This document shows, piece by piece, positions 33,778 to 52,814 of a stretch of 64,000 bases of DNA. The notes under the pieces were generated by a model, which was given only the letters and a program-made list of their open reading frames with translations, ran no database searches and had not been told where the DNA came from. This stretch comes from an uncultured Acidobacteriaceae bacterium (GTDB lineage: Bacteria > Acidobacteriota > Terriglobia > Terriglobales > Acidobacteriaceae): contig CAWHOT010000002.1 in NCBI GenBank assembly GCA_963831085.1, positions 986,941 to 1,050,940 on the forward strand. The letters are read 5' to 3'. How positions within the stretch are numbered: position 1 is the stretch's first letter; the number at the start of each line of letters is the position of its first letter. A program made the position numbers and the translations under genes.

Positions 33778-34550
33778 GCCTGGGCCGTTTCATTGTTCGT
33801 CACTTTGTTCGTCATTTTCCTCATGAGATTCTTGGCCAGTTCGAGGGCATCGATGGCATTACGGGAGTAGCCATCGGCGCCGATTTCAGCCGCCCACTTC
33901 TGGGTCACCGCGGCGCCGCCAATGATCGCTTTGACTCGCGGCCGCAAACCGTTTCGATCGAGCGCTTCGATCACGGCTTTCTGCCCGGCCATGGTCGTTG
34001 TCAGCAACGCAGAAATGCCGACGATATCGGCATCGACTTCTTTGGCCTTGGCAACGAACTGCTCGGGAGTCACACTCGTGCCCAGATCAAAGATCTGGAA
34101 TCCGCTGGCGGAAAGGATTGTGGCGACGAGATTCTTGCCGATGTCGTGAATATCGCCTCGGGCAGTGCCGAGAATGATCTTGCCCAGAGCCTCACGCTGC
34201 GAGCCGCGCCTCAGCATCTCCGGTTCAAGAATGTTGATAGCGGCTTTCATGGCTTCGGCCGACGCGAGCAGATCGGGCAGAAACATTTCGCCGCAGCCGA
34301 ATTGATCGCCGGCGAACGTGATCCCCTCGGCGAATCCTTGATTCACCGCCTCGAGCGGATCGACGCCGTTGGCCAACGCTTGCTGTGCCAATTCCGTGGC
34401 GGTATCAGACGCGCCGTCAATGATGCTTTGACGCATCGCTTGGAAGAGTTGACGCGACAAAAAGCCTCCCGCACAGAGCCTTGGAATCAGGCTGTCCAGG
34501 CCGGGATTGTACTCCGGCCCGGAGTCAAAAAACTGTGACACGTCGCACAT
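33774..34550 (-). CDS. Cobalamin-binding corrinoid protein (MtbC/MttC-like)
   Basis: DxHxxG base-off/His-on motif (GDIHDIGKNLV), a B12-binding Rossmann part (ADIVGISALLTTT) and an N-terminal helical cap. The start is uncertain: 34550 is listed, but the ATG at 34436 would give a more typical ~220 aa. Confidence 0.8.
   Translation of the reverse strand: MCDVSQFFDSGPEYNPGLDSLIPRLCAGGFLSRQLFQAMRQSIIDGASDTATELAQQALANGVDPLEAVNQGFAEGITFAGDQFGCGEMFLPDLLASAEAMKAAINILEPEMLRRGSQREALGKIILGTARGDIHDIGKNLVATILSASGFQIFDLGTSVTPEQFVAKAKEVDADIVGISALLTTTMAGQKAVIEALDRNGLRPRVKAIIGGAAVTQKWAAEIGADGYSRNAIDALELAKNLMRKMTNKVTNNETAQA
34534..34549. promoter_or_regulatory. Near-consensus Crp-type palindrome TGTGA-N6-GCACA
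   Basis: TGTGACACGTCGCACA has one mismatch to TGTGA-N6-TCACA. It is upstream of the corrinoid/MttB genes only if the shorter start (34436) is the real one. Confidence 0.3.
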
Positions 34551-34752
34551 CCCCGATTGTTAACGATGAATTCTCGAAGAAGTATCTCGAAAAGTACCCG
34601 AGTTCTCCCTAGTTCGGCGCTCCGCGTCCTATAGAATAGGCGCTCCGTGAGCACCTGTGGACGACCAAGAAAAATAAGATGACGATGACGACGACGAAAA
34701 CGACGAGGGCTACTCGGAGTGGGCGTGCCCTTGCTTATTCAGTGGGTGAAGG

Positions 34753-35109
34753 ATGAAGCGTGAACATTTCGTCAAGGTAGTCGAGGAGGCGCTCGACTCG
34801 CTCCCACAAGAATTTCGCGGCCGCATTCGTAATGTTGCTATCTTGGTAGAGGATATGCCGCCGAACCAGCCATCACCGCAGTCGGGGCAGCAGAGGCGGC
34901 TGCTTCTGGGTGTCTTCCATGGCGTGCCCACGACCAAGAGGAGCATATTTGACCTACCGACAGGGCCGGATCACATCGTGCTTTATCAGAAGAATATTGA
35001 GGCGGTCTGCTCCAGCGAGGCCGAAGTCCGCGAACAAATCCGCCTGACGGTCATCCATGAACTGGGCCACTATTTCGGTCTGAATGAGGACCAACTGAAG
35101 GATGTCTAG
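34753..35109 (+). CDS. Small zinc metallopeptidase-like protein (DUF1025/zincin-like)
   Basis: 118 aa with an HELGHYFG (HExxH) motif near the C-terminus. Confidence 0.7.
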   Translation: MKREHFVKVVEEALDSLPQEFRGRIRNVAILVEDMPPNQPSPQSGQQRRLLLGVFHGVPTTKRSIFDLPTGPDHIVLYQKNIEAVCSSEAEVREQIRLTVIHELGHYFGLNEDQLKDV

Positions 35110-35284
35110 AAGGCGGTGTGGACTGCGCTCAGGCATCGGGTGAATCGATTTGCGTTTGCACACCTGGGTGCGATGAGAAGGTACTATCGGTCGCGATCCT
35201 TACTAACCCGAGTTCAGTGAAAACCTAAGTCAAACCAGACTTCTGTAGGCTTATGATGTTGGCTCCAAAGCAAGGAGAGTGCAA

Positions 35285-35758
35285 ATGGCAGACCGGAGCG
35301 CGGGACGTAAGGCAGCGCCTACTCGGAAGGTGAAAAGGGAGAAGAGTGCATCTACGCCATCGACTCCACAAGCGGGAACACGGCGGAAGGTTGGTGATCT
35401 CAGGGTTCGGCCGCAATTGGAAAAGGGCATATTGGAGCTTCAGGGGCTACACAAGTTGTTGCTTTCCAGCGATGTGGACCCTGACGTTCTGGCGGATTTC
35501 CGGGACGCCTTAAATCGAGTCAGGAATACCGCATGGGCCGCCCAGCAGTATGTCGTCCGCAAGGAGAGCGATCAGGACTCGACCAGTGTGCTCTCGCTCC
35601 TAGCCGGAGAACGTATACGTGCCGCCTACCAGCTTTGCCAGGCGCTGGCCGATGATTTGAAAGCCAACATTGAATTTCAACGAGGCAGTCTTGTTCAACT
35701 CTACGCGGCCGCGAAGACTTTGACAGAGCAACTAAAACGCGTCATCGACAAGCTATGA
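35285..35758 (+). CDS. Hypothetical protein with a basic N-terminus and helical C-terminus
   Basis: AAGGAGAG RBS 7 nt before the ATG at 35285. No motif recognised. Confidence 0.5.
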   Translation: MADRSAGRKAAPTRKVKREKSASTPSTPQAGTRRKVGDLRVRPQLEKGILELQGLHKLLLSSDVDPDVLADFRDALNRVRNTAWAAQQYVVRKESDQDSTSVLSLLAGERIRAAYQLCQALADDLKANIEFQRGSLVQLYAAAKTLTEQLKRVIDKL

Positions 35759-35781
35759 TGGGCCTTTAATCACTCCTAATT

Positions 35782-38090
35782 TTACTGCCCCTGTCCCAGC
35801 GCCTTCTCCAGATCATCCGCGGCTTTGCCGATTGCGGCCGCGACGTTCTCCAGCACCTGACCCACCATGGGAACCTGGGCATCGGCTTCCGTCCATTTTT
35901 CCTGATCCATGTACTCCCGAACAGCCGCAATCGGCTTGGCCCCGTACCCGGTGTATGCACCGGGAGCGTATACCTGATGCTTGAACCACGGGCGCGCCGG
36001 CAAGCCCTTTTCGGTTAGAAACGTTCGCTGAATCTGCATTAGCTCCACGTTCAGAGCTGTGGCAGTCTGCGCCGGTAAATCGGTTCCACCGGCCTGCCAC
36101 TTGGTAAATGCTGCCTGATAGCGTTCCGCACTCTTCTTGATCGCCTCAACCCCATTCTTCAGCGGAGCAAAGTTCATGAACGGTGGAACCAGCTTGGTCG
36201 GAGGGGGAACAGAGGTTTTGCGCGGGTCGGCTGTAGCCGAGAATACGCCCTCTTTCAATTCCAGATTGCGCTCGGTGATCTCCTCCTGCTTGTCTTTGAG
36301 CAGTTTCTCCAAGTCTTTCACGTAACGTTCGATCGTCTCCGCTGCTGCGTTGTACTCGTAGGGAATCACGTCAGCATCTGCCAATCGCATGACTGCGGTT
36401 CCCCCAGTCTGTGCCAGAGCGCGCCCGTACGAAAAATCAGTGTCTACAAACTTGGTGTACCAGTAGAAATCGTCGTAGATGGAATGATAGGCGTTGGCAT
36501 CGTTCTCACCGCCGTAACCGATGTTGAGCGTGGAGATGCCGGCATGGTCTATGAATGGTGCGTAGTCCGAACCGTCTCCCAGCGCGTTGATCCGCACATC
36601 TTTGTTTTTTCTGATCTCGGCCCGCTCTTCAGCATTGGGTGCCCTGGCAATTCGCTGCAGATGCGCTCGTTGCTGGACGGAGATTTGTTTCTCTGGATCT
36701 TGAATGTCCCGAGCTACATCGTTAATGAGGTGTTGCAAGTCGTGCGAACCACCGGCGAAGAGGAAGCCCCGGCCATTGCTATCGGAATTGATGTAGGCGA
36801 CGGCGTGCTTCTGAAGTTCGCCGCGATGGGTTTCGACCCACTCGGTTGAGCCCAGCAGCCCAGGCTCTTCGCCGTCCCACGCGCAGAGGATGATCGTGCG
36901 CTTCGGATTCCATCCTTTTTTGCGCAGCTCGCCGAGCACGCGAGCTTCTTCCAGAACCGCCACCATTCCGGAGATGGGGTCATCGGCGCCATTGACCCAG
37001 GCGTCATAATGATTTCCGCGGATCACCCATTCATCGGGTTCGCCTGATCCACGCAGGGTGGCGATCACGTCGTTGACCGGCTTCAAGTCCCAGTTGGAAG
37101 CCACTTTCAGATGAACTTTCGCGGGGCCGGGACCCACGTGATAGGTGATCGGCAAGGCGCCCCGCCATGCCTCGGGCGCGACTGGCCCCTGCAAGGCGGA
37201 AAGCAGTGGGAGCGCATCGCCCCATGAAATCGGCAGCACGGGAATCTTGGTGATGGTTTTCGCGTCTTTGATATCTAGCCGCTTGGCGTCGGCAGTAGCG
37301 CCGACTCCGGGCGTCAGAGGATCGCCGGGATAGTCCGTGTCCATGACGCTGCCGCGTTGCACGCCTTCGCGCGACCGCCACCCACCCTTGGGATAGTCGT
37401 CGCCGTTGAAGAAGCCATCGTCCCTGGGATCGGAATAAATAATGCAACCGATCGCCTCATGCTCGGCCGCAACCTTCGGCTTGATGCCGCGCCAGCCTTC
37501 ACCGTAGCGCGCGATTACGATTGCACCCTTGACGGAAATCCCCAGGCGGTCGAGCTGCTCGTAATCTTCGCGGTTGCCGTAGTTCACATAGACCAGCGGG
37601 GCGGTCACGTCTCCGTCGATGGAATACGCGTTATAGGTCGGCAACTGCTCCGCTGTTTGATTCGAGGTCGGATCGCCGGGGACCGCAGGTTCCTGCAGAT
37701 TGGCTCGGAACCTGGTCGGCTCGATCATTTCAACGATGCGCTCTTTGGGCGTCGGGAAAAGCACCTGGAAGGTTTCGATGCGGGCGTCAAATCCCCATTC
37801 TTTGAACTTGGAGAGGATCCAGTCGGCATTTTCCTTATCGTAGGGAGAACCCACATGGTGCGGACGCGCACTCAACGCTGCATGTTCTGACGCAGGTTCT
37901 CCGGGACGATACCGTCCTGAAGTTTCTTCTCCCAACCGCGCTCGGCCGTGGAGGATTGCGACGAGTAGCCGGATAGACGAGAAGTATCGGCAGGCGGGGT
38001 TTGAGCCGATTGCGCAAAAGTGAGATGAGCTTCGCTGATCATGATCATGGCGACCAATGCGACACATGCGACAGAACATAGTGAAGTCAA
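35782..38090 (-). pseudogene. M28-family peptidase, glutamate carboxypeptidase II/PSMA-like, interrupted by a 1-nt frameshift near 37872..37877
   Basis: Signal peptide and ..ENLRQNMQR are in the frame of ORF 37872..38090 (TTG start with a GGAGG RBS). The rest (LSARPHHVGSPYDKEN...) is in the frame of ORF 35782..38079. The junction reads CAGCGTTGAGT, where CAGCGTTTGAGT would give the continuous family motif. Confidence 0.8.
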
Positions 38091-38268
38091 GAAAACCTCC
38101 TCAGGTGGTCATTTTCTCAGCTGGATTGATCACGGCGATTTGAAGGACGAAGTATCAGCAAAGTTCGGCAGTTTCTGAACCAACAGACATTTTAGACATT
38201 ACCCAAAGTTCCGCCAGCTCGTAGTAAGGCAAAGTCTTTGGCCCTTGTTCAACCGCATGATGAACAAG

Positions 38269-38946
38269 CTATTGCAGCGGCTTAGCCGGCGTCCCCGGTT
38301 TGACGCCCGAATGCTTTTTCGCCTGGGCCATCAACTCCAGAACTTTGTCTTTGCCTTCGTAGTTCGGATTCGTGTCCAACAACTTCTGCCACGTGGCAAC
38401 AGCTTTGTCGATATCCATCTTGCCCTGCCACTCGACGATCCCCAGATTGAACAACGTGTTGGCCTTGTTCGGCTCGTAGGAAAGCGATTTCTGGAATTCG
38501 GCGATGGCAGTATCGGCGTTGCCGGCGTACCAATAGGCAGTCGCCATGTCGGTACGGACACTCGTGTTGGCCGGTTCGACCTTCAGCGCGCGCTGGTAAT
38601 AGTCGATTGCTGTCGGGAACTGCTGGGCATCGTAATAGACGTTCCCGATGTTTTCCAGGAGGCCGGCGTTGGTCGGATCGGCCTTCAGCTTCTCGATCAA
38701 TGGTCCGGCTTGCGTGTCGGCCATTTTCTGCATCTCAGCCGGGGTCGGAGCCTGGGCAGCGGCATTTGGATTCCCCATGCCCGGGGCGGATGAGCTCGCT
38801 ATCTCAGTCGCAGCGGCCGCAGGACTCTGGGATCCGCGAATGAACCAGCCGCCGGCGATTCCCACCAGCAGGCAGATGACCGCCAACACGTAAGCCTGCA
38901 CGCTTGTCCATTGCTCGATAGTCGTTGCTCGATTTGTATCTGTCAT
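38269..38946 (-). CDS. Membrane-anchored TPR-repeat protein (paralog 1)
   Basis: N-terminal TM followed by TPR-like repeats (A..YY..A...P.N). Clearly similar to the neighbouring gene 39033..39701. Confidence 0.75.
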   Translation of the reverse strand: MTDTNRATTIEQWTSVQAYVLAVICLLVGIAGGWFIRGSQSPAAAATEIASSSAPGMGNPNAAAQAPTPAEMQKMADTQAGPLIEKLKADPTNAGLLENIGNVYYDAQQFPTAIDYYQRALKVEPANTSVRTDMATAYWYAGNADTAIAEFQKSLSYEPNKANTLFNLGIVEWQGKMDIDKAVATWQKLLDTNPNYEGKDKVLELMAQAKKHSGVKPGTPAKPLQ

Positions 38947-39032
38947 TTCTCAGTACTCCTTCAAATCTCGATCTGTTTGCTGGGACGGACGAGGCGCCCG
39001 TCGCTCCACGTATTCATCACGCGGTCACAATG

Positions 39033-39701
39033 CTAGCTCTTGCCCTGCATCTGGACGTCGGCCATCAATTTCTGCACCGTGGCTTTCCGGTCTGGGCTCA
39101 ATTCCGGATTCGACTTCAGCAGTTGCTGCCAAGCTGCCAGCGCTCCTTTGTTGTCCTGTTTTCCTTTCCACTTGATCATGCCGAGGTTGAACAGCGAGTT
39201 GGCGTCCTTGGGGTTATATTGCAGCGCCTGCTGCAGCTGGCTGATCGCTCCGTCCACATCGCCGTTGTAGTACAGGCACGAAGCCATCTGGGTGCGAATG
39301 GCAACGTTTTTGGGATCGACCTGCAATGCCTTGTCGTAGTAGCCGGCCGCCTCCTTGAACTGGTGGGTAGCCTGGTAGAGGTTTCCGACTTGGATGAGCA
39401 AATCGCTGTTGTTCGGATCGCCCTTCAGCTTTTCGAGCAGCGGCGCTGCCTTCGTGTCGGCCATCTGTTTCATCTGCTCGAGGCTGGGCATCTGCCCGCC
39501 CATATGACCGGCAGGAGCGGCGGGCTGGGCATTGGCCTGGGAACTGGCCGCGGGCGGCGTCGGCACCGCGGGCGATTGCGATCCGCGGAACAGGTATCCG
39601 ATCGCCAGCCCAACCACGAGGCTAATTAGCGCCATCGCGTAAACCTGCTTCGCTTGCCAGGTTGATCCCGCAGTTGGTTGCGTGGTGGGTTCAGTTTCCA
39701 T
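39033..39701 (-). CDS. Membrane-anchored TPR-repeat protein (paralog 2)
   Basis: Same architecture and motifs as 38269..38946 (LLEKLK.DP.N..LL...GN.Y...Q...A..YY..AL...P.N). Confidence 0.75.
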   Translation of the reverse strand: METEPTTQPTAGSTWQAKQVYAMALISLVVGLAIGYLFRGSQSPAVPTPPAASSQANAQPAAPAGHMGGQMPSLEQMKQMADTKAAPLLEKLKGDPNNSDLLIQVGNLYQATHQFKEAAGYYDKALQVDPKNVAIRTQMASCLYYNGDVDGAISQLQQALQYNPKDANSLFNLGMIKWKGKQDNKGALAAWQQLLKSNPELSPDRKATVQKLMADVQMQGKS

Positions 39702-39870
39702 GCCCTATTCTCTCCTAACTCTTAAGTGCGCTCGAGGCCCGCCTTCGCTGGGCAACAAGACTGTATGAACGATTTCCCCGCAGCATGAAAAAGGGTTTTG
39801 GCCCTTTGACTTTGCCAATTTACCTTAAAGGCGGAGAAAAAGACGGGCAGCATTCCGCGTCACTCGGGAA

Positions 39871-39886
39871 TGTGATGGCGATCACA
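39871..39886. promoter_or_regulatory. Perfect Crp-type palindrome TGTGA-N6-TCACA
   Basis: TGTGATGGCGATCACA read directly. It is intergenic, 170 nt upstream of the TPR gene start (39701, minus strand). Confidence 0.55.
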
Positions 39887-39937
39887 CGGAGAAGGGGTGG
39901 CGCAAACTGTGGCCAGTGGGGTTCGGGAATCCGCAGT

Positions 39938-40930
39938 TTAGCGGCTCGAGGTTTTCTGCATCCAGGCCCACGCACTTGAGACGATGTCGGCGAGACTGCG
40001 CTGGGCGGTCCATCCCAGCACTCTTTGAGCCTTCGACGGATCAGCCACCAGGACTGGAGGATCGCCCGGCCGCCGTGGTCCAATCTTTCGCCGGACCGGG
40101 CGTCCAGTGGCGTTTTCCGCCGCCTGAATGACTTCGAGAACGGAATGTCCCCGGCCGGTTCCTAGATTGATGGCCAGCGATTCGCCCATTTTGCCTCCGT
40201 CTCTTTCGCCGTTTCTTTCCAGGTATTGCAACGCTCGGACGTGCGCATCGGCGAGATCGCTGACATGAATGTAGTCGCGAACGCAGGTGCCATCCGGAGT
40301 GGGATAGTCGGAACCGTAAATTTGCAACTCTCGTCCGTTCTCGGTGGAGGCGGCGAGGGCCAGAGGAATCAGGTGAGTTTCCGGATCGTGGAGCTCGCCG
40401 GTCTCGCCACTTTCGTCGGCTCCGGCGGCGTTAAAGTAGCGCAGCCTCACCGCGTGCAGTCCGTAGGCGCGGTCGTAAGCTTCGAGTGCATTTTCGAAAA
40501 AAAGCTTGGACGCGCCATAGGGATTCACCGGCTCGCGCGGCGTCTGCTCAGCGATCGGAATTCGCTCGGGGAGACCGTACACGGCACAGGTCGAAGAGAA
40601 CACGAACCGGCGGATACCGGCGTCCAGCGCGGAGTTCAGCAGGCTGAGTGCAGCGACAACGTTGTTGCGGAAATACTTGCGCGGGTTCTCGACCGACTCT
40701 CCCACATAAGCGTGAGCGGCAAAGTGCATGACCGCGTCCACGCGCGCGAGCACCGGACGGAGCTTCGCGTCGTCGGCGATGTCGCCCTCCACCAGCTCGA
40801 AGCCTTGCGCCAGGCGGCGAAAGCCGGTGGAAAGATTGTCGTAGATCACGACCTCATAACCGGAACGCCGAAGTGCGCGCGCCGCATGACTGCCAATGTA
40901 GCCTGCTCCACCCAACACCAGGATCGCCAC
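39938..40930 (-). CDS. galE: UDP-glucose 4-epimerase
   Basis: VLGGAGYIGSH NAD-binding motif, YGASK catalytic motif, 330 aa, GTG start. Confidence 0.9.
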   Translation of the reverse strand: MAILVLGGAGYIGSHAARALRRSGYEVVIYDNLSTGFRRLAQGFELVEGDIADDAKLRPVLARVDAVMHFAAHAYVGESVENPRKYFRNNVVAALSLLNSALDAGIRRFVFSSTCAVYGLPERIPIAEQTPREPVNPYGASKLFFENALEAYDRAYGLHAVRLRYFNAAGADESGETGELHDPETHLIPLALAASTENGRELQIYGSDYPTPDGTCVRDYIHVSDLADAHVRALQYLERNGERDGGKMGESLAINLGTGRGHSVLEVIQAAENATGRPVRRKIGPRRPGDPPVLVADPSKAQRVLGWTAQRSLADIVSSAWAWMQKTSSR

Positions 40931-42041: not shown

Positions 42042-42093
42042 GTCAATAAGAACCTGACAGCTTTAAGGGGACTACACCGTCATCACCGCTTCC

Positions 42094-42109
42094 GGTGATC
42101 AAGATCACT
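42094..42109. promoter_or_regulatory. Crp-like palindrome GGTGA-N6-TCACT overlapping a 7-bp hairpin (42082..42099)
   Basis: GGTGATCAAGATCACT has an intact GTGA-N6-TCAC core. Its left arm is also the right arm of ATCACCG-CTTC-CGGTGAT. It lies upstream of the hybrid kinase gene. Confidence 0.35.
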
Positions 42110-42225: not shown

Positions 42226-44238
42226 ATGTCGCGAACTTCCTCGGATCACAAGGAACCCGCCCACTCATTCTCGGGCAAAACTGTCTCGGGCAATACTATG
42301 TCTGACGTCATGCTTTCCAGCGAACTCCTGGAAGCCCTTCCGGATGCCATCGTTGCCGTCGATGGCGACGGAACCATCATTCAAGTCAATTCACAGGCAC
42401 TAGAGCTTTTTGGCTACCGCCGTGACGAATTGATTGGTCAGAAGGTTGAAATGCTCGTCCCGGAGAGCTATCGCCCGCGGCACCACCATCATCGCGAGAA
42501 CTTCACCAAAACGCCGAAGACGCGACGGATGGGAGCGGATTTGGATCTCTACGGCAGACGGCGCAACGGTTCGCAATTCCCGGTAGAAATCAGTCTCAGT
42601 CCTCTTTACACGGGGAGCGGAACGCTGGTGCTGAGTGCGATCCGCGACATCAGCGATCGCAAGCGTATTGCAGAAGAACTGCGCCGGGCGAACGAAGAAC
42701 TGCATCGGCGATCGGCCGAGCAACTGGGAGAATACCGGTCGAGACTGGCCTTGATTATCGATTCTTCCGAGGACGCGATCATTGGCAAAGGCTTGGACGG
42801 CATCATCACCAGTTGGAACAAGGGAGCCGAGCGCATCTATGGCTACACGCCAGAGGAAGTTGTCGGAAAGCACATATCCCTTCTAGCTCCCAGTGATCGC
42901 CCCGATGAAATCCCTGAGATTCTGAAAAAAATCGCGCGAGGGGAAGGCACCGAGCATTATGAATCGGTGCGGGTAGCCAAGGATGGACGGCAGCTGAATG
43001 TCTCCATTTCCGTGTCTCCGTTGCGCGATGCGAAAGGCGACGTCATAGGAGCGTCCGCGATTGCCCGTGACATCACGGCCCAAAAGAAGGCCGAGGGCCA
43101 GCTTCATCAATCACAGAAAATGGAAGCGGTCGGGCGGCTGGCGGGAGGAGTCGCGCACGACTTTAACAACATCCTGGGGATCATCAGTGCCTGCGCGGAA
43201 TTCCTCCGCGACCGCATTGAACCCGCCGCGGAACCTTCACACTACGTCGAGAACATCAAGAAGGCAACGGAACGCGGCTCCGCTTTGACTCGCCAGCTTC
43301 TTGCCTTCAGCCGGTCATCTGTAATCCAACCCCGTGTGCTCGATCTGAACGAGCGGTTGAAGGACGTCAGCAGGCTCCTGCGTCCGCTGATGGGAGACGA
43401 TGTCGAGATTCTCATTTTGTCCAAATCACCCACGGCGGTGGTCGAGGCTGACCCCGGACAGCTCGATCAGATCGTAGTAAACCTCGCGGTGAACGCGCGC
43501 GACGCTATGCCACGAGGCGGCAAGTTTATTCTCGAAACTCGCGCCGAGAAATTTGACGAGGCCTTCGCCGAGCAGAATCAATCCATGGCCGCAGGAAAAT
43601 ACGTTCTGCTCGCGGTCAGCGATACCGGCAGCGGCATGGACGAAGCTACCGTCTCGCGCATCTTTGAGCCCTTCTTCACCACCAAAGAGAAGGGCAAAGG
43701 AACCGGCTTGGGCCTGGCCACTGTGTATGGCATTGTCAAGCAGAGCGCCGGTCACATCCTGGTTTACAGTGAACCGGGACACGGAACGACTTTTAAGATC
43801 TATCTCCCCAGTGCGGATCACAAACTCGGGCTCGCATCCAAGCCGGAAGTCGAGGCCGTCAGTCCGAAGCGGCACGGGACTACGATCCTGCTGGTTGAAG
43901 ACGATGAAATCATGCGCAGCTTGACTCGACAATTACTGCAAGAGCACGGCTATACCGTCATTGAAGCGGATGACGGGAAGTCCGCGCTCGAATGGGTGGA
44001 GTCGCATCCGGATCCAATTGATCTCGTGCTGACCGACGTAGTGATGCGCCGCATGAGCGGTCCTGAATTAGTTGAGCGCCTGAACGCCTCTCACCCGAAC
44101 CTGAAGGTCGTGTACATGTCCGGCTATACCGGCGAATTGATCGCGGAACGCGAAGTCTTGAAGCGCGGGATAACGCTCCTGGAAAAACCCTTCAGCCGAA
44201 CGGCCTTGCTGAACACCATCCATGCCACTTTGGGATGA
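42226..44238 (+). CDS. Cytoplasmic hybrid sensor histidine kinase (2 x PAS, HisKA, HATPase, C-terminal receiver)
   Basis: PAS motifs (AIVAVDGDGTI.., DAIIGKGLDGIITSWN), H-box HDFNNIL, G-boxes DTGSGM and GTGLGL, receiver ILLVEDDE..DLVLTDVVM. An alternative start lies at 42298. Confidence 0.85.
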   Translation: MSRTSSDHKEPAHSFSGKTVSGNTMSDVMLSSELLEALPDAIVAVDGDGTIIQVNSQALELFGYRRDELIGQKVEMLVPESYRPRHHHHRENFTKTPKTRRMGADLDLYGRRRNGSQFPVEISLSPLYTGSGTLVLSAIRDISDRKRIAEELRRANEELHRRSAEQLGEYRSRLALIIDSSEDAIIGKGLDGIITSWNKGAERIYGYTPEEVVGKHISLLAPSDRPDEIPEILKKIARGEGTEHYESVRVAKDGRQLNVSISVSPLRDAKGDVIGASAIARDITAQKKAEGQLHQSQKMEAVGRLAGGVAHDFNNILGIISACAEFLRDRIEPAAEPSHYVENIKKATERGSALTRQLLAFSRSSVIQPRVLDLNERLKDVSRLLRPLMGDDVEILILSKSPTAVVEADPGQLDQIVVNLAVNARDAMPRGGKFILETRAEKFDEAFAEQNQSMAAGKYVLLAVSDTGSGMDEATVSRIFEPFFTTKEKGKGTGLGLATVYGIVKQSAGHILVYSEPGHGTTFKIYLPSADHKLGLASKPEVEAVSPKRHGTTILLVEDDEIMRSLTRQLLQEHGYTVIEADDGKSALEWVESHPDPIDLVLTDVVMRRMSGPELVERLNASHPNLKVVYMSGYTGELIAEREVLKRGITLLEKPFSRTALLNTIHATLG

Positions 44239-44332
44239 CCGGGGGATGACTGGCAATCTAAAGCTGCCGTCCGCCGAAGCGGGAATGTCTTGGGTCATCG
44301 AAACCAAAGTTTGGTCATATAACCAAACGCTT

Positions 44333-44348
44333 GGTGATGGAGATCACA
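44333..44348. promoter_or_regulatory. Near-perfect Crp-type palindrome GGTGA-N6-TCACA upstream of the Crp/Fnr gene
   Basis: GGTGATGGAGATCACA, 181 nt upstream of the ATG at 44529. It shares GTGATGGnGATCACA with the site at 39871. Confidence 0.45.
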
Positions 44349-44528
44349 CATTACTGTGGGAAAGCACTCACCGCCGGAGGGGGGCTCGGGGGGTGGCAAA
44401 CATAATGTTCGCTACCGCACGAAATTAATGCTATGATTCCGTGCCACTTAGACAACTTCCCTGAATTTGGGCCCGAGCCTGGAGTATGGCGAGGCAGTTG
44501 CCAAAGCACGTGTGAACGGAGACAACAT

Positions 44529-45230
44529 ATGGCCACCTCAGTCGTAGACAATGTCCAGAAACTGGCACCAGCAGACAAGACGTTTTGCGATCTTCCTCCA
44601 GCCGTGGCCGACGCCTTGGAGCAAGCGGCACTGACCACCAGCTATCCCACGGGTGCAGTTCTGTTCGCGGAGGGCCAGGCGCCCCGCGGAGTATTCATCG
44701 TCCGTCGAGGCCGGGTGAAGCTTTCCATCTGCGGCAGCGACGGCAGGACGCTGATTCTGCGTATGGTCGACTCCGGCTGCCCATTGGGAGTTGCGGCGGT
44801 AGTTTCCGGGCGGCCGTACGAAGCCACGGCCGAAACCCAGGAGCCGTCCGAAGTCAGCTTTTTACGGCACAGCGATTTGCTGCGCCTTATGCGTATTCAC
44901 GGCGAGGTTGCCCTGTGGGTGACCCAGCACATCGCCGAAGATTACGCCAGCACATGCCGGGAAATCCGTGATCTGATCCTTTCCGACTCGGCCAGCGAAA
45001 AGCTCGCTCGGCTGTTGGTGGGATGGCTCGATCAAAACACCGCGTCCAAGAACCCAAGCCAGATGAAGCTGGCCTTGACGCACGAAGAGATCGGGCAGAT
45101 GATCGGCTCTTCGCGAGAAACCGTGAGCCGGCTTTTCGCAGGCTTCAAGAAGCAGCACGTCATTCAGCAGAGCGGATCTACTCTGGTGATTCAGAACCGC
45201 GTGGCTCTGGAATCGCTGATCACGGCATAG
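44529..45230 (+). CDS. Crp/Fnr-family transcriptional regulator (no N-terminal Fe-S Cys cluster)
   Basis: cNMP-binding-like domain (LFAEGQAPRGVFIVRRGRVKLS) and a C-terminal HTH (THEEIGQMIGSSRETVSRLF). The start is set at the ATG with a GGAGA RBS. There is only one Cys in the N-terminal 30 aa. Confidence 0.85.
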   Translation: MATSVVDNVQKLAPADKTFCDLPPAVADALEQAALTTSYPTGAVLFAEGQAPRGVFIVRRGRVKLSICGSDGRTLILRMVDSGCPLGVAAVVSGRPYEATAETQEPSEVSFLRHSDLLRLMRIHGEVALWVTQHIAEDYASTCREIRDLILSDSASEKLARLLVGWLDQNTASKNPSQMKLALTHEEIGQMIGSSRETVSRLFAGFKKQHVIQQSGSTLVIQNRVALESLITA

Positions 45231-45658: not shown

Positions 45659-47779
45659 TCAGCTTTGTCTTTTGTCGCCTGAACCGTCGCCAGTTCCCTG
45701 CTCGTCATCGTAATCGGCAGGATCAGTCGGTAACTCGACCTGGTGGGCCCGTTCCAGGGCGCGTAGATACTCCGGGCGAGAATGGCGATAATGGTCGGCT
45801 GGGACTTTGCCGTTGAGCCAGGCTGTATCCATCGGATAGACGAGCGGGTCGAAGATCACCATGTAGAAATGCCAAATAAGGATGGAGAAAGTCGCGAGCA
45901 GCGCTTCGTAATAATGCACGGCCGTGGCCGCATCCGACACCCACTTGGGGAAATGGCGCAACGTGAAATTGTTAAACCACAACAAGAAGCCGGAGACCGT
46001 CATCACCACCGTTCCCCACATGAAGGCCCAGTATTCCATCTTCTCCGCGTAGTTGAATTTCTTGAAGTGCGGTTCGGTTTTTGTGAGCCCGAGATTGTAG
46101 GAGAACACCTGCACCAGATCGGTCGCGTCTTTCAATTCGGGCAACATCGCTTTCAGGAACATGCGATCGCGCTTGTTTCGCGCGAGGTGAATCACGTGGT
46201 AGATCGTGGAAGCGAGGAGCACAACCGCCGCTCCGCGATGCACCGCGCCGCGGAATGCGAAGATGCCTTCGCTGAGCAATAGCGGACGCGCCCAGAATGC
46301 GTCCGGATACTTCAGCGCGAACCCGGTGACCACGAGCGTCGGGAAACTGAGGATCACGCCCCAGTGCGCGATACGGAAGTTGCGATTCATCCGCGTCACT
46401 TGTCCGCCGGTTTCGTGCCGCGGCTGCCGTCGAAGGACCTTGGCCAGATAGTCCAGGAGGTTGTGCAGCATCATGAAGCCGAGCGTCATCGGGATCAGGA
46501 ACCAGTAGGTCCAGCGAATCCACTTCACCACCGGGTGATTGGGGCCCGCGCCGGTCTGCACATGGATGGGGCCGATGATGTATTTGTCATTGACCACGCC
46601 CTGGTGACATTGTCCGCAGGTTTTGGGGAGGTTGGCAGCGTTGACGGTCGAGCGCGGATCGCTGGAACGGAGAATGGAGTGCACCCCATGGCATGAAGCG
46701 CAATTCGCCGCGGTCACTTTCCCTTCGGTGAGGGCCAACCCGTGATAGCTTCCGGCGTAGGATGGCAGGCGATCCATTGGCAGATCATTGCGCAGCGCCA
46801 GACGGGGATCGCCGTGGCAACGCCCGCAGGTCTCCTGGGAGATATTCCTGGCATTTAAGGGTGAGGCCGCGCTCTTTGGATCCATGATCAGGTGCTCGCC
46901 GTGGCAATCGACGCAAACGGGAGCATCCCGAACGCCTTCCTTGACCGCTTCGCCGTGGACGCTCTCGTTGAACTCGCGCGCGATTTCCTTGTGGCATTGC
47001 GCGCAAGTTTCCGGCACCTTCCAGTGATTGACCCGGGATCGCTCGTCGGTGGCGGGATAGATGTCATGAGTGCCATGGCAACTGGAACAGGTGGCCGCAT
47101 CCTTGCCGAGCGCGACCGCGCGGCCGTGAACGCTTTGCTTATAGGAATCGACCGGATGCGCTACCGGAATTTTGTGCCGCGACAAGAAGCCGGCATCGCT
47201 ATGGCATTTTGCACAAGTATCCGCCAGATTCTTACGCGCGATGGTCGAGTCGGCTTCGCTGGAGGCTTTCACCGCGTGGATGGGACCGTGGCAGGACACG
47301 CATTTGGGCGCGTCGGGGTCGCCATTTTTCGCGGCCTGTCCGTGGATGCTGGATTCGAGCGCCTTCAGTTCCTCGCCGTGACATTCCGCGCATTTTGCGG
47401 GCATCAGTTTTTCGGCGGTGGTGAGTTCGTGCACGCTGCCATGGCACGAGGCGCAGGCCGATTCGCCGAGGATGGAGTGGGCGCTGGCGGGGAAAAACTT
47501 GGCTTCGTCCGCATGGCAGGTAGCGCATTTCACTTTGGCGATTTTGGCGGGATGCGGAAATTCTTTGATGGCGGTGTGGCAATCCTTGCAGCCGAGAATG
47601 GCGTGCGCACTGGCGGCATGCTTGGCCGGGTCAATTGAAATGTCTTTCCCGGCGTCGGATTTCATTCCCGCCTGGCCATGGCACGCCAGACATTCCTCAT
47701 CGCCAGCGGGGGATGCCGAGGCCACGGTCGGAGCCAAAACCAAAGTCAGGTAAAGCAAAGCAACCAGAGCTGCACGCAT
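45659..47779 (-). CDS. Fusion of a 13-heme periplasmic c-type cytochrome with a C-terminal membrane b-type cytochrome domain (CbcL-like architecture)
   Basis: Signal peptide; 13 CxxCH motifs, several in doubled-CxxCH modules; a C-terminal ~300 aa with TM helices and conserved His (FdnI/HydC-like cyt b) paralogous to 47846..48736. Confidence 0.85.
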   Translation of the reverse strand: MRAALVALLYLTLVLAPTVASASPAGDEECLACHGQAGMKSDAGKDISIDPAKHAASAHAILGCKDCHTAIKEFPHPAKIAKVKCATCHADEAKFFPASAHSILGESACASCHGSVHELTTAEKLMPAKCAECHGEELKALESSIHGQAAKNGDPDAPKCVSCHGPIHAVKASSEADSTIARKNLADTCAKCHSDAGFLSRHKIPVAHPVDSYKQSVHGRAVALGKDAATCSSCHGTHDIYPATDERSRVNHWKVPETCAQCHKEIAREFNESVHGEAVKEGVRDAPVCVDCHGEHLIMDPKSAASPLNARNISQETCGRCHGDPRLALRNDLPMDRLPSYAGSYHGLALTEGKVTAANCASCHGVHSILRSSDPRSTVNAANLPKTCGQCHQGVVNDKYIIGPIHVQTGAGPNHPVVKWIRWTYWFLIPMTLGFMMLHNLLDYLAKVLRRQPRHETGGQVTRMNRNFRIAHWGVILSFPTLVVTGFALKYPDAFWARPLLLSEGIFAFRGAVHRGAAVVLLASTIYHVIHLARNKRDRMFLKAMLPELKDATDLVQVFSYNLGLTKTEPHFKKFNYAEKMEYWAFMWGTVVMTVSGFLLWFNNFTLRHFPKWVSDAATAVHYYEALLATFSILIWHFYMVIFDPLVYPMDTAWLNGKVPADHYRHSRPEYLRALERAHQVELPTDPADYDDEQGTGDGSGDKRQS

Positions 47780-47845
47780 TTCAACGCCTTTCGGCAGTTC
47801 AAAAGCAAATCATGTGGAGCGACGCTCCACCAACACAAGCCACTT

Positions 47846-48736
47846 CTAGCGGTAGGCGAACAACACCGCATAGATGATCCACAACACAATGCTGAATCCG
47901 ACCGCCAGCGCTGCCCAGGCGAAGGCTCGAATCGTACGGGTGACGATTGGCGGATAAGCCTCCTCCATGTAATCCTCCAGCGTCCCGCTGGCGACCAGCG
48001 CTTCATACTCTCTCGGCTTGTCCCTCTTTAATTCTTCGAGCGGCATGCGCCCAGTGAACACCGTGATGTCCATGGGAAACTTTTCGGGGCGCAAGTGGGT
48101 ATTGAAGAAATGGACGGTAAAGATGAAGCCGGTGGCGAGCAACGCCTCGTCGCTGTGAATGATGGTGGCGACGTTGAGGAACGACCCCGGTATAAACCGG
48201 GTGAAGAACACTGGAAACCAGAGTGTGAGGCCGGTCGAACCGATCACCGCGATCCCCCAAAACACCGCGAAATAGTCGAATTTTTCCCAGTACGTCCAGC
48301 GGCCGTAGGCAGGGCGCTTGCCCAGGCCCACAAACCACTTCAGCGTGGCCACGAACTCAGCCAAATCCTGGCGGTTGGGGATCATGCTGCCCGGACCGAA
48401 CACCAGCGAGCGCCAGGAAATGTGCTCCCTTTTTTTCTGTCGGTACAAGTCCACCAGATGGGTGATGAAGACTCCGAACATGACGACGGCGGCGGTGCGG
48501 TGAATGTAGCCCGCGTTCTCGAATCCGCCGAGCAGATGAGAAAGCACCGCGGCCCATTTCGTGTAGGAGAACTTCAGGGTCAACCCGGTCAGCGCCAGGC
48601 TCATGAAGCTCACGATCATGCAGATGTGCAGAGTCCGCTGCAACCGGGAGAACCGGATGAACTGACGTTCGGGGCGGGCGAACTGCGGACGTTCCGCCGC
48701 GCGTTCCACCAAGTCTGCTGATTCGCCCTTAGGCAT
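47846..48736 (-). CDS. Membrane b-type cytochrome (FdnI/HydC-like), stand-alone
   Basis: The start ATG at 48736 is preceded by AAGGAGAA and lies 4 nt after the upstream stop codon. It aligns by eye with the C-terminus of 45659..47779 (EK..YWA..WG....S.G..LWF ... H..EALLAT..I...HF ... PMD). Confidence 0.8.
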
Positions 48737-50792
48737 CGGTGTTCTCCTTATTCTTGCTCGGGGGAGTTTCAGGCTTGGTGGCGTCTTCGGTTTCCGCGGC
48801 GCGCAACTCCTGGCGCATCTGGAAAGCTCGGGGCAGCCAGAGCAGGGTATGAACGCCACCGACCACGAATGTCACCAGGAGCAGCGTGGTCATGCCCCAG
48901 AAGGTATAGAACAGGAACGGGTACTTGCGCGGGTCGTGGTGGGTGGCGTGCGTCAGGTATCCGGCGAAGCGGCGGGTCGCGCCGGCATGGCATTTTCCGC
49001 AGGTGGCCGCGACGTTGGCCCGGCTGAGGTGAGAGCGTGGATCCGTCACCGCCAGCACGTCGTGAGCGCCATGGCAGTCATAGCACTTTGCCGCTTTCGT
49101 GTACCCCAGCTTCGAGACCTTCCCGTGATAGGTGTCAAAATAGGTCTCGGCAATCTGCTGGTGACAGCGTCCGCACGTAGTCATCACGTTCAGCCGGAAG
49201 CTGTTCTCATCGGTGCGGTGGATGGCATGAGCGGTATGGCAATCGTTGCACACTGGAAGTGACTTGCTGAACCCGCTCACTCGCTTGGCATGGATGCTGT
49301 TCTCGAACTGCTCCTCGATGCCGTGGTGGCACCTGCCGCACGTGGTCGGCACGTTGTTGGCGTTGACACTCGACGCCGGATCGGTCCGGGGAAGGATCTG
49401 GTGAGCGGTGTGGCAACTGGTGCAGGTCGCCGTCACCGTCAGGCCGTTCTTCAGTAGAGTTCCGTGAATGCTCTCCGTATAGTTGGCGATAATTTCGTGC
49501 TGCAGTCCGGTGTAGCGCACGGCAGCCTTCTGGCCCTCGCGGTGACAGCGCGCGCAAAGCACGGGAACATTGGTGGCAAAGGTCGACGATTGCGGATCCT
49601 GTTTGCCCAGGATGCCATGCGCGCCATGGCATTCCTTGCAGGTCGGGGCATTCGGATCGTTCTTGCCGTTCAGCTGTCCGTGGATGCTGGTGGCGTACAG
49701 CTTGCCAATTTCATCGTGGCAAGCGGTGCAGTCGACCCCGTGGATGATGGTCTCGCACGGGCGCACACGGGAGGCGTTGACCTCCGAGTGGCATTGGCTG
49801 CAGGCAACGTTGCGAAGTCTGCCAGGTTCCTCGCTGTGACGCGAATGGTTCACCTCGGTCATGTTGACGTACATGGATTTGCCGTCGCGCGCGCGACGCA
49901 GTTTCTCGTCGGCGTGGCAACGCATGCAGTCGGCATCGGCCATGCCCTGCGCATAGAAGACGTTCCTGATCTTATGGGGCTGATGGCAGTCCGGGCACGC
50001 GGGCAGAACGTTGGCCTGTTTTTCCCAGAGCTCTCCGCGAATTGTCTTCCGGTGGACCGATTCGATTTGCGAGTGGCACTTGGTGCAGGTGGCGGCAATG
50101 TTCCGGCGATTGATCGAGGAAGCGGGATCGGTATGCGGCAAGATCAGGTGCGGGGTGTGGCAGGTGGCGCAGTTCGGGGCCACCGACAGTCCCTTCTTCA
50201 GCAACGCCTCCCCGTGAATGCTCTCAGAGTAGTTCTCCAGAATGTTGTCCTGGGGAATAGTTCGGTTGCGCGAAACCGGAGTTCCTTCGCGATGGCACTG
50301 GCCGCAAACGAAGGGCACTCTCAACGCCGCCACGGCGGACCGGGGGTCCTTCACCGGAACGATGTCGTGGTTCCCGTGACAATTCACGCAGTGGGGCGCC
50401 AGCGCATCGCCGCGGGCAATCGCCTTCCCGTGGAGCGAGCGGGCATGTTGCTCCTGCTCGGTCGCATGGCACGTACCGCACTCGACCCGCGCCGGCGTTT
50501 CGTGGGGAAAGTCCTTCCCTGCCAGATCGGCGTGGCATCCGGTGCACCCGAAGCTGGCATGTACCGAAGTGGCAAATTTCTTTCCATCTACGTATAGCGA
50601 GACCGTTTTGCCGGCTCGCGTTGTGGTCATGGTCTTGTCGCCGTGGCACGCTAGACATTCCTCCCCCGGCTGATCGGCGGCGCATACGGGGCGTTCCAAG
50701 AACACGAGGGAGAAAACGGTGGCGACAAGCGTCGCAACGACGACTCCCAGACCAGCACACCACTTCCTTCGCGCAATTCTTATTTCAGCCAT
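48729..50792 (-). CDS. 19-heme c-type cytochrome with a C-terminal TM anchor
   Basis: N-terminal anchor/signal, 19 CxxCH motifs by hand count, repeated doubled-CxxCH modules (CxxCH..H.[IL]...DP.S.[VI]...N[IV]..TCxxCH), and a C-terminal TM (FWGMTTLLLVTFVVGGVHTLLWL). Confidence 0.85.
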   Translation of the reverse strand: MAEIRIARRKWCAGLGVVVATLVATVFSLVFLERPVCAADQPGEECLACHGDKTMTTTRAGKTVSLYVDGKKFATSVHASFGCTGCHADLAGKDFPHETPARVECGTCHATEQEQHARSLHGKAIARGDALAPHCVNCHGNHDIVPVKDPRSAVAALRVPFVCGQCHREGTPVSRNRTIPQDNILENYSESIHGEALLKKGLSVAPNCATCHTPHLILPHTDPASSINRRNIAATCTKCHSQIESVHRKTIRGELWEKQANVLPACPDCHQPHKIRNVFYAQGMADADCMRCHADEKLRRARDGKSMYVNMTEVNHSRHSEEPGRLRNVACSQCHSEVNASRVRPCETIIHGVDCTACHDEIGKLYATSIHGQLNGKNDPNAPTCKECHGAHGILGKQDPQSSTFATNVPVLCARCHREGQKAAVRYTGLQHEIIANYTESIHGTLLKNGLTVTATCTSCHTAHQILPRTDPASSVNANNVPTTCGRCHHGIEEQFENSIHAKRVSGFSKSLPVCNDCHTAHAIHRTDENSFRLNVMTTCGRCHQQIAETYFDTYHGKVSKLGYTKAAKCYDCHGAHDVLAVTDPRSHLSRANVAATCGKCHAGATRRFAGYLTHATHHDPRKYPFLFYTFWGMTTLLLVTFVVGGVHTLLWLPRAFQMRQELRAAETEDATKPETPPSKNKENTDA

Positions 50793-50811
50793 GTCAAACT
50801 CTCGACCATGC

Positions 50812-52260
50812 TTACTTCATGCCAAGATCCGTAAGTACTTTCGGGTTTGCCTCCTGAACCGCGAGCAGGTTGTGGCACGCACTGCAATCATTGGTGATGG
50901 TCTGGCCATCGGCGCTGGTGTGACTACCGTCATGGCAGCGGAAGCAACCCGGCGAATCGTTGTGTCCAAGATTATTGGGGTGAACACCCCAGGCCACACG
51001 CATGTCGGGGAAGACGTTACGCAGGTAGATATTCGCCACTTCCTGGCCGGCCTGTTCCACCACCGTGCGCCGCGTTTGATAGATCTGCGGGTAATTGGTG
51101 CGATAGAAATTGTTGAGTTCTTCCTTAATGGTGCGCTGCGCCACATCGCGGGCGGAGTAATTCGCTTTGAGAACCTCGACCGCCTTTTTCCGGATGAAGG
51201 GAAGCTCCGGGCTGATGCGCCCGTTCGCCATCTGCTTGTCCACCGCATTTTCCGGCAAGTCGAAGGCATGGGTGGGCCGGTTATGGCAGTCGACGCAATC
51301 CATCACGCGATGCTCTCCCTTGTCCATTTGCTGTTGAGTAGGCTTTGTATCAGTGGAAATGAATTCGGTGGTTTTTCCGTTTTCGTCGGTGTAATAGACG
51401 GCCGGGATCGTCTGCCGCCCGGGGTCAGTCGAAATGTAGCGGATGCGCTCGTTGTCGGCGAGGTGGCGCCCGTGGATGCCGACCGAACCCTGCCAGGCTA
51501 TCCCGCCCACTTTCAGCAGCAACACGTCCGTCTGGGGGGTATTTTTTTCGTCGTCCTTGTAGCTGGCATTCACCAGGAACTTGTCACCGGTAAAGCGCTG
51601 GGGCCAGTGACACTGCTCACAGGTCTCGCGCGCCGGCCGGAGGTACTTTACCGGCGAAGGAATGGGGCGCGAATAGGTGTGGAAGGTTACCGCGAAGACC
51701 TGCCGCAGTCCGGAAAGCTTCGAGCGCACAAACCACCCGGCCCCGGGTCCGATGTGGCAATCGACACATTCCACACGCGAGTGTGGAGAATTCTGATAGG
51801 CCGTGTACTCCGGATCCATCACGGTGTGACAGGTTCTCCCGCAGAAGGTCGTCGAATCCATGTACTGCACGCCGCGGTACGATGCGGTCCCGAAAATGAG
51901 CAGATTGAGCACAGTGGCCGCTGCCACGTACTCCAGAGTGCGGCGCACCACGGGCAGTCCCAGGTCGATGGCAGGGAAAATCGTCGGCAGTTCCCCGCTC
52001 GCGCGCAGAGTTCGCCGCCGGAGCCAGATGCCAAATGGAATCAGCAGCAGGCCGAGTACAAAAATACCCGGGAGAATCAGAAAGACCAGAAGGCCAATAT
52101 AGGGATGCGGCGGCCCCGGCAAGAAGACTTCATAGAACCAGAAGGCGATGGTGGTGAGCGCCGCGCTCGTCGTGACCACGGCACCGATAAGGGTGATAGG
52201 ATTCTGCCCCAGAAAATAGATGGGCTCCGACCACTCTCTGATGCGTTCTTGCAGAGTCAT
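50812..52260 (-). CDS. Inner-membrane multiheme cytochrome with 3 TM helices and a NapC/NirT-like quinol-dehydrogenase region (ImcH-like architecture)
   Basis: Three N-terminal TMs, then TTFCGRTCHTVMDPEYTAYQNSPHSRVECVDCH (NapC/NirT hallmark, but the first site is CxxxCH). Four further CxxCH motifs follow (CEQCH, CVDCH, CFRCH, CSACH). Confidence 0.8.
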   Translation of the reverse strand: MTLQERIREWSEPIYFLGQNPITLIGAVVTTSAALTTIAFWFYEVFLPGPPHPYIGLLVFLILPGIFVLGLLLIPFGIWLRRRTLRASGELPTIFPAIDLGLPVVRRTLEYVAAATVLNLLIFGTASYRGVQYMDSTTFCGRTCHTVMDPEYTAYQNSPHSRVECVDCHIGPGAGWFVRSKLSGLRQVFAVTFHTYSRPIPSPVKYLRPARETCEQCHWPQRFTGDKFLVNASYKDDEKNTPQTDVLLLKVGGIAWQGSVGIHGRHLADNERIRYISTDPGRQTIPAVYYTDENGKTTEFISTDTKPTQQQMDKGEHRVMDCVDCHNRPTHAFDLPENAVDKQMANGRISPELPFIRKKAVEVLKANYSARDVAQRTIKEELNNFYRTNYPQIYQTRRTVVEQAGQEVANIYLRNVFPDMRVAWGVHPNNLGHNDSPGCFRCHDGSHTSADGQTITNDCSACHNLLAVQEANPKVLTDLGMK

Positions 52261-52381
52261 TGGAAGCCGCTGCTCTCCTTATCCTCAATGCTGCGCTGGG
52301 TAGACACACGCCACACTTTGCCGCGGATTCTTAGCCGCCCTCGACCATCTTCCCAGTCTTTATGGCTAGAACCAGCCAGGA

Positions 52382-52693
52382 CTATTTTTTCAACGTGCGG
52401 ATGTAGGCCACCAGTGCCTTAGCGTCCACAGCTGGATACTTGGGCATCTTGTTCTTGCCGTTGGTGATGGCATCCGCGAGCTGCGCGTCCGTCATTTTCT
52501 GCACTTCTGCGGAGGTCAAATCCTGAGCGCCCATTTTCTTCCCCATGGGCGAACCGGTTCCGTCAGCGGCATGGCAGGCGACACATTTTGCTTTATAGGT
52601 ATCTGCCGCGCCTTGCGCATGCGCCGATAGGGGAAGGGCGAGAACAATCGCCAATGCTGTTGCGATAGTAAACAGTGTGATGTTGATTCTCAT
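52382..52693 (-). CDS. Monoheme class I cytochrome c (103 aa)
   Basis: Signal peptide MRINITLFTIATALAIVLALPLSAHA, CVACH, and a distal Met (NKMPKY). The start is set at the internal ATG with a GGAG RBS. Confidence 0.85.
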   Translation of the reverse strand: MRINITLFTIATALAIVLALPLSAHAQGAADTYKAKCVACHAADGTGSPMGKKMGAQDLTSAEVQKMTDAQLADAITNGKNKMPKYPAVDAKALVAYIRTLKK

Positions 52694-52798
52694 CGTCGAG
52701 CTCCATTCGAGTTTTGGTTGGCCCAGCATTTGGAACGAAATACATCTATTAAGCCGCATCCGCAACCCACAATATTGAAGGTTTCGCGGGCGAGGTTC

Positions 52799-52814
52799 TG
52801 TGATCCCGGTCACA
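52799..52814. promoter_or_regulatory. Perfect Crp-type palindrome TGTGA-N6-TCACA inside the cytochrome cluster
   Basis: TGTGATCCCGGTCACA lies in the 323-nt gap, ~106 nt upstream of the ATG at 52693. An AATATT -10-like element lies ~30 nt downstream of the site centre (class II-like geometry). Confidence 0.55.

Follow-up and report, generated by a model that had tools for sequence, protein, structure and literature searches.

Cascades that include a second-tier Crp/Fnr-family regulator, such as FixLJ-FixK and Anr-Dnr, are well known. In the cyclic AMP (cAMP) receptor protein of Escherichia coli (CRP, or CAP), R180, E181 and R185 of the RETVGR helix contact TGTGA, E72, R82 and S83 contact cAMP, and a distance of 22 bp from the CAP site to the second base of the -10 element is exclusive to class II promoters (PMC10187061). 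The Fnr proteins of Bacillus and Paenibacillus are Fe-S oxygen sensors that bind TGTGA-N6-TCACA (bioRxiv 10.1101/2020.01.03.894683). Here we analyzed palindromes of this form in a 64,000-nucleotide stretch, the window, from an uncultured Acidobacteriaceae bacterium (GCA_963831085.1, contig CAWHOT010000002.1; G000:C2:986941-1050940), whose genome comprises 5.9 Mb with 58% G+C. An earlier note on the window had read five such palindromes as a local Crp-family regulon. Judged from sequence, the palindromes are quite likely to be operators for dimeric Crp/Fnr-family factors, belonging to a genome-wide regulon of about 100 promoters, mainly of class II, with four-cysteine paralogues as the likely top binders.

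Genome-wide distribution and conservation of the palindrome

The five palindromes were all found as the note had written them. Two are perfect TGTGA-N6-TCACA boxes: TGTGATCCCGGTCACA at 52799..52814, before a minus-strand cytochrome operon (position weight matrix, PWM, score 21.5), and TGTGATGGCGATCACA at 39871..39886, before a pair of TPR genes (21.2). The others are GGTGATGGAGATCACA at 44333..44348 before a Crp/Fnr gene (16.8), TGTGACACGTCGCACA at 34534..34549 before a corrinoid/MttB operon (15.0; one core mismatch) and GGTGATCAAGATCACT at 42094..42109 upstream of a hybrid kinase gene (13.2), which has its GTGAT-N4-ATCAC core intact and is mismatched at the two outermost bases only. The two perfect boxes compare with 0.02 expected in the window, and at least two occurred in 0 of 100 shuffles; boxes with at most one mismatch, including 44333 and 34534, number six against 1.42 expected, and at least six occurred in 0 of 100 shuffles. 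A scan of the window's coding DNA gave a single strong match, at 51606-51621, where the haem motif CEQCH (TGT GAG CAG TGT CAC, minus strand) is encoded within a 482-aa NapC/NirT-like cytochrome, and this match is kept in the closest relative only.

The note had suggested a PWM scan of the whole genome as a check, and genome-wide the motif was enriched in intergenic DNA and depleted in coding DNA. Perfect boxes number 30, with 28 in intergenic DNA (0.9 expected) and 2 in coding DNA (2.7 expected), and one of the latter sits just upstream of a Crp paralogue that the gene caller had merged into a longer frame. Boxes with one mismatch are enriched 3-fold between genes (95 against 29 expected) and depleted 2-fold within them (42 against 89 expected). 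At a PWM score of at least 14 there are 106 intergenic positions, about 5 being expected by chance, and 18 coding positions, several of which lie within 90 nt of a called start; at a score of at least 16, the ratio of intergenic to coding density is 47. The genome-wide logo reads tGTGAy-N4-rTCACa, with a conserved GTGA/TCAC core and the outer T/A least conserved, and the distance from box to start codon peaks at 75-125 nt. Each of the other 29 half-site permutations gave at most 4 intergenic palindromes in the whole genome. The FNR-box palindrome of the TTGAT type is not enriched in the genome, where the permutations GTTGA and TTGAG have at most 3 intergenic copies each, and the enriched box bears G at the position that discriminates the CRP-type box from the FNR box.

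Four intergenic boxes in the window reach a score of 14 or more, where 64 kb of this genome have 1.1 on average, and this places the window roughly in the top tenth of 64-kb windows. The densest island, C1:160000-285000, has up to 14 intergenic boxes per 64 kb; both four-cysteine FNR-like paralogues are encoded there, as are PFOR, a malic enzyme-PTA fusion and a ferredoxin. Given about 100 sites genome-wide and denser islands elsewhere, the window is a minor island of a genome-wide regulon. The Crp-family part of the note's proposal thus stands, in that the sites are intergenic, conserved and spaced as class II operators, but the regulon is not local.

Conservation upstream of orthologous genes was examined in relatives that are mostly metagenome-assembled genomes (MAGs) from peat and soil, some of them labelled 'Candidatus Sulfotelmatobacter'. 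All five sites are retained; the note had named a lack of such conservation as grounds for rejecting its proposal. All 80 orthologous loci of the regulator gene have the box; it lies 188-196 nt from the ATG in 78 of them and at 178 and 208 nt in the other two, and its position 1 is always G or A, never T. Of 29 relatives, 28 have a cytochrome c box that scores at least 13 at a distance of 80-130 nt from the ATG, and the cytochrome itself is only 46-96% identical. The TPR box scores at least 18 in 27 relatives out of 29, at protein identities as low as 61%. The corrinoid box scores at least 11 at the matching position in 24 of 28 relatives; its imperfect half (TGTGC) is retained in close relatives, and orthologues of 53-58% identity bear perfect boxes. 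Of 24 orthologous kinase promoters (at least 71% protein identity), about 17 have the box at the same place, and its score reaches 21.7. When the alignments are anchored, the columns of the box hardly vary (about 100% conserved for the cytochrome box) and the flanks are poorly conserved.

These results bear on the idea that the palindromes arose by chance or as copies of a repeat element, such as a repetitive extragenic palindrome (REP) or an element resembling a miniature inverted-repeat transposable element (MITE), with no regulatory role. They are indeed short palindromes in intergenic DNA, and one coding match is a CxxCH haem motif. Spacers and flanks differ among copies, however, the 30-fold enrichment is specific to this half-site among the permutations, orthologous promoter positions are held across dozens of species while the flanks diverge, and the spacing to -10 boxes is fixed. 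The idea is extremely improbable, and the repeat element in particular was rejected on the differing spacers and flanks and the orthologous conservation of the sites. CxxCH haem motifs were also considered as a general source of coding matches and set aside; they explain the match in the window but just 1 of the 18 genome-wide.

Two other sequence patterns emerged from the scans. A weak match at 19896-19911 overlaps the stop codon of the upstream gene and the ribosome-binding site of the next one. The near-identical word TGTGA(G/A)CGGAG, found there and at 44502-44517, precedes the start codons at 19920 and 44529 and is probably a shared translation-initiation context and not a box. The palindrome TGGAT-N6-ATCCA has 18 coding copies and 1 intergenic copy, far above other permutations, and may reflect a repeated protein motif.

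Promoter architecture at the five sites

Among 83 box-gene pairs across the genome, a -10-like hexamer occurs at an offset of 29.5 or 30.5 in 21, and any other offset has about 2. This peak matches the 22-bp class II spacing described for CAP (PMC10187061). A dimer centred at -41.5 or -42.5 would overlap the -35 region and recruit RNA polymerase, acting as an activator rather than a repressor. Such class II activation would fit the cytochrome c/NapC-like operon and the corrinoid/MttB operon in the window: both sites have the class II arrangement, with the centre near -41.5 and about 22 bp to the second -10 base, and the kinase site and the regulator's own site depart from it.

The cytochrome box is a putative activator site centred at -41.5. 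The putative -10 hexamer CAATAT (52772..52777, minus strand) lies 29.5 bp from the box centre, and C/G-A-N-T-A-T occurs at this fixed spacing in 28 relatives. The earlier note had seen a class II-like geometry relative to an AATATT box at this place, and the conservation of the -10 element bears this out. Downstream is a string of cytochrome genes (45659..52693, minus strand), identified with Pfam, that share a strand, are separated by short gaps and are probably co-transcribed. They encode a monohaem cytochrome c (52382-52693), the 482-aa NapC/NirT-like multihaem cytochrome (50812-52260), a 658-aa multihaem cytochrome (48729-50705), a cytochrome b (47846-48736) and a multihaem/cytochrome b fusion (45659-47758). 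A GATTACA-like block is found 9-15 nt upstream of the box in most relatives, and reads GGTACAC here (52823-52829, minus-strand reading).

The corrinoid box is a putative class II site centred at -42.5, and the conserved putative -10 hexamer TACAAT (34506..34511, minus strand) lies 30.5 bp from its centre. Downstream of TACAAT in this promoter come GGGAGG-N5 and a start codon, TTG or GTG. The alignment of corrinoid orthologues with the longest open reading frame (ORF) begins no earlier than about residue 22-28, and some orthologues have stop codons upstream; together with the conserved GGGAGG-N5-TTG/GTG, this indicates that the longest-ORF start is wrong and that translation begins at TTG 34460. 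The note had placed the palindrome at the start of the corrinoid gene. With the start at 34460 the centre of the site is 81.5 nt upstream, which makes it a promoter element that does not overlap the start codon. The operon encodes the corrinoid protein (33774-34460, minus strand; NCBIfam MtgC-like and pyl_corrinoid) and an MttB-family methyltransferase (32329-33687, minus strand), which matches the trimethylamine methyltransferase family below the cut-off.

At the TPR promoter, the centre of the perfect box is 177.5 nt from the ATG of the gene pair and at -63.5 relative to a conserved -10-like hexamer, TAAGGT (39822..39827, minus strand). A half-box, GTGAY-N7-TGCTG (39849..39864, minus strand), lies 22 bp downstream, centre to centre, at -41.5 relative to TAAGGT, and is conserved in 28 aligned relatives. 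The promoter would thus combine a distal perfect box with a proximal half-box in the class II position. We also considered a sigma-54 reading of the second element (GTGAC-N7-TGCTG) and rejected it, as GT stands in place of the -24 GG; the half-box 22 bp from the perfect box fits better. The presumed targets are two TPR-repeat proteins (39033-39701 and 38269-38901, minus strand; Pfam TPR families).

The kinase promoters of relatives often hold two boxes 22-23 bp apart. Here the distal member of this tandem pair, 22 bp upstream at 42072..42087, is decayed, with the ATCACC half alone remaining. The gene (42226..44238, plus strand) encodes a hybrid histidine kinase with PAS-PAS-HisKA-HATPase-receiver domains (Pfam) and adjoins the regulator gene in 10 of 11 syntenic loci. 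We rejected a class II position for the box before the regulator gene, which is 188.5 nt from the ATG, as no suitable -10 element is present and TATAAC just upstream conflicts with CATAAT 60.5 bp downstream. A near-palindrome that contains TATAAC, TTGGTCATATAACCAA at 44311-44326, lies 22 bp upstream of this box, centre to centre. Most orthologous loci retain it, and it may serve as a second operator or as the promoter.

The gene context described in the note agrees with Pfam and NCBIfam for the TPR pair, the PAS hybrid kinase, the Crp/Fnr regulator, the cNMP-binding protein, the B12-binding corrinoid protein and the cytochrome cluster. The stand-alone cNMP-binding protein, which the note had listed beside the Crp/Fnr regulator, has no DNA-binding domain, and nothing ties it to the sites.

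Predicted targets and candidate regulators

Targets were predicted from the genes that follow the best 40 boxes found elsewhere in the genome. Those of energy metabolism are PFOR, two ferredoxins, a malic enzyme-PTA fusion, a zinc alcohol dehydrogenase, two SatP/YaaH acetate permeases, NuoC, isocitrate dehydrogenase, a CoA-transferase, CcsA, a multihaem cytochrome and a molybdopterin oxidoreductase. Iron is represented by the permease FTR1 and by Fur, and regulation and signaling by a TetR protein, three Ser/Thr kinases, a PAS kinase, a GGDEF-EAL protein, a cNMP-binding protein and other Crp paralogues. A type II/IV secretion ATPase and outer-membrane proteins make up the envelope and secretion targets. 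Taken together with the cytochromes and the corrinoid methyltransferase system of the window, this set points to a regulon of low-oxygen and fermentative energy metabolism plus signaling. A separate cluster at C2:98200-108327 packs four perfect boxes into 9.4 kb; the genes among them encode a TonB-type outer-membrane protein, Fur, a SatP permease and two Crp paralogues.

The regulator encoded in the window (44529..45230, plus strand) is a Crp/Fnr-family protein of 233 aa with Pfam cNMP_binding and HTH_Crp_2 domains, and its closest solved structure is E. coli CAP (1e-16). Its helix, RETVSR, retains R180, E181 and R185 and is invariant in 80 orthologues. At the cAMP contacts E72, R82 and S83 the aligned residues are V, Y and E, and in these the protein departs from a CRP in the strict sense. 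Neither does it have the FNR cluster: only the third of the four cysteines is retained, and this one is variable (62 of 81). Two other cysteines, Cys68 and Cys143, are near-invariant.

The genome encodes 12 Crp/Fnr paralogues, of which 9 have a recognition helix of the RE type and 6 the full R-E-x-x-x-R. RETVSR is shared by the window regulator and a protein at C1:208900, and RETVTR is found at C1:246213. RETITR occurs in an 84-aa ORF at C1:396238-396492 that encodes the helix-turn-helix part alone and is probably a gene fragment or a frameshifted gene. RELVSR is present in two copies, RETVTT in three, which lie beside SatP genes and TGTGAAA...TTTCACA boxes, and the remaining three paralogues have unrelated helices. 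With nine RE-type helices in the genome, attributing the sites to the window's regulator is not justified. The paralogues at C1:208900 and C1:246213, whose genes span C1:208900-209613 and C1:246195-246917, have an N-terminal C-x2-C-x8-C motif and a fourth cysteine in an 'hhC-G' strand. In 30 homologues of 39-74% identity, which come from 10 genera, neither the four cysteines nor the RETV[ST]R helix varies. Both proteins also bear, at the cAMP-contact region, the same 'RPYE.TAE' stretch as the window regulator.

The resemblance of the window regulator to CAP and the identity of the box with the E. coli CRP consensus would suit classical catabolite control, in which a cAMP-activated CRP responds to carbon supply, and proteins with cNMP-binding domains are both encoded in the window and found among the targets. 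We nevertheless consider this very unlikely, for the cAMP contacts are replaced in the window protein, the four-cysteine paralogues carry the same stretch in their place, and the targets are mostly redox and anaerobic functions and not sugar catabolism.

We hypothesize that the two four-cysteine proteins, encoded outside the window, are the top-level binders of the palindrome, presumably as redox or oxygen sensors. The simplest reading is that they are FNR-like sensors heading the regulon and that the window regulator is a derived, second-tier protein, most likely of the FixK/Dnr type. It lacks cluster cysteines and cAMP contacts, the box before its own gene is conserved, and a PAS kinase is encoded next to it. 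It would be expressed through its own upstream box and may act on the cytochrome, TPR and kinase promoters.

A narrower proposal, close to that of the earlier note, is that the five sites are bound specifically by the window regulator, which would make up a self-contained module together with the PAS hybrid kinase, the cytochromes and the TPR pair. The regulator's invariant helix, the box before its own gene in every orthologous locus and the excess of high-scoring boxes in the window speak for this. The order of kinase, regulator and cytochrome genes is retained in genomes of the same genus, and in a divergent clade the contigs that encode a 54%-identical regulator also have a NapC-like gene (42-44% identity) at a distance of 6-11 kb. 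The regulator, the kinase, a TPR gene and the NapC-like gene are, moreover, jointly present or absent in 22-23 of 24 genomes. Against it, the motif recurs at about 100 promoters elsewhere, five other paralogues have the R-E-x-x-x-R helix, no box position sets the window sites apart, with orthologous sites swapping T and C at position 6, and co-occurrence may merely reflect phylogeny. On balance we regard this proposal as doubtful, if still a real possibility.

Several points weigh against operators of a genome-wide regulon headed by the four-cysteine paralogues. The -10 elements were all assigned from conservation and not from mapped transcription starts. The kinase box lies about 24.5 bp from a conserved CAATAT/GAATAT and thus at about -36.5, which is non-canonical for an activator, and no -10 element was found at class II distance from the regulator's own box. 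The x8 spacing and the position of the fourth cysteine in the two paralogues deviate from E. coli FNR, so an Fe-S cluster in them is putative. Box positions 6 and 11 vary among orthologous sites, with T/C interchange at position 6, and they assign no site to a paralogue; we had considered distinguishing T/A from C/G sites at these positions and abandoned this, as orthologous sites exchange the bases. Genes were called crudely by codon-usage score, giving 79% coding, and the use of one PWM both trained on the sites and used to score them is partly circular; the conservation tests are independent of both the gene calls and the PWM.

The sole variant that tracks one paralogue group is TGTGAAA...TTTCACA, which goes with the RETVTT-helix proteins beside SatP genes. 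Copies of TGTGAAA-N2-TTTCACA are located at C2:105112, C2:105206, C3:1344339 and C3:1344415, between SatP/YaaH genes and RETVTT paralogues, and may constitute a sub-regulon with its own specificity.

A more elaborate version of the two-tier arrangement, which we put forward as a rather unlikely but specific idea, is that the four-cysteine masters switch on the window regulator and the PAS hybrid kinase through the asymmetric box that every orthologous locus has before the regulator gene, and that this module specifically gates the neighbouring Cbc-like multihaem cytochromes, the TPR pair and possibly the corrinoid operon. If this were true, peat Acidobacteria would run a two-level oxygen or redox cascade over respiratory or extracellular electron transfer and the use of methylated amines.

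Comparison with known systems

The organisms concerned are uncultured Acidobacteria abundant in peat and soil, and how they cope with anoxia bears on peat carbon turnover. The MAGs used as relatives come from the SPRUCE peatland site, from palsa, bog and fen samples of the Stordalen type and from Danish soils. The regulon provides a prediction, made from sequence, of genes that would be switched jointly: PFOR, ferredoxins, acetate permeases, multihaem cytochromes, the corrinoid methyltransferase system and several regulators. The four-cysteine FNR-like proteins are candidate sensors that could be tested in E. coli without culturing the source organism. No description of an acidobacterial Crp/Fnr regulon of this sort was found in the searchable literature.

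With E. coli CRP and its class II promoters, the system shares the 16-bp consensus, the R/E/R contact residues (RETVGR there, RETVSR here), a box centre at -41.5 or -42.5 and a distance of 21-22 bp from the box to the -10 element. It differs in the absence of the cAMP-binding residues, in its redox and anaerobic targets and in the many paralogues that share the box.

A cysteine-bearing FNR-type sensor combined with a CRP-type box, several paralogues per genome and more than 100 predicted genes of anaerobic metabolism are features in common with the Fnr proteins of Bacillus and Paenibacillus. The cysteine cluster of Bacillus Fnr is C-terminal, whereas here the motif is N-terminal (C-x2-C-x8-C) with the fourth cysteine in the beta-roll, and the phylum is a different one. 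The FNR proteins of E. coli and Aliivibrio resemble the present system in the N-terminal C-x2-C-xn-C of two paralogues, in the class II activation and the anaerobic targets predicted here and in boxes before the regulators' own genes. Unlike here, they recognize TTGAT-N4-ATCAA, with T and not G at the key position, have x5 spacing instead of x8 and use Cys122 as the fourth ligand; the window regulator, for its part, differs from FNR in having no cysteine motif.

The second-tier regulators of FixLJ-FixK and Anr-Dnr offer a parallel, in that the window regulator has no sensory cysteine cluster, a PAS sensor kinase beside it and a family box upstream of its own gene. In contrast to FixLJ-FixK, the kinase here is a hybrid with its own receiver domain, no FixJ-type response regulator is adjacent, and control of the regulator by the kinase is putative. 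In kind, this is an ordinary Crp/Fnr regulon.

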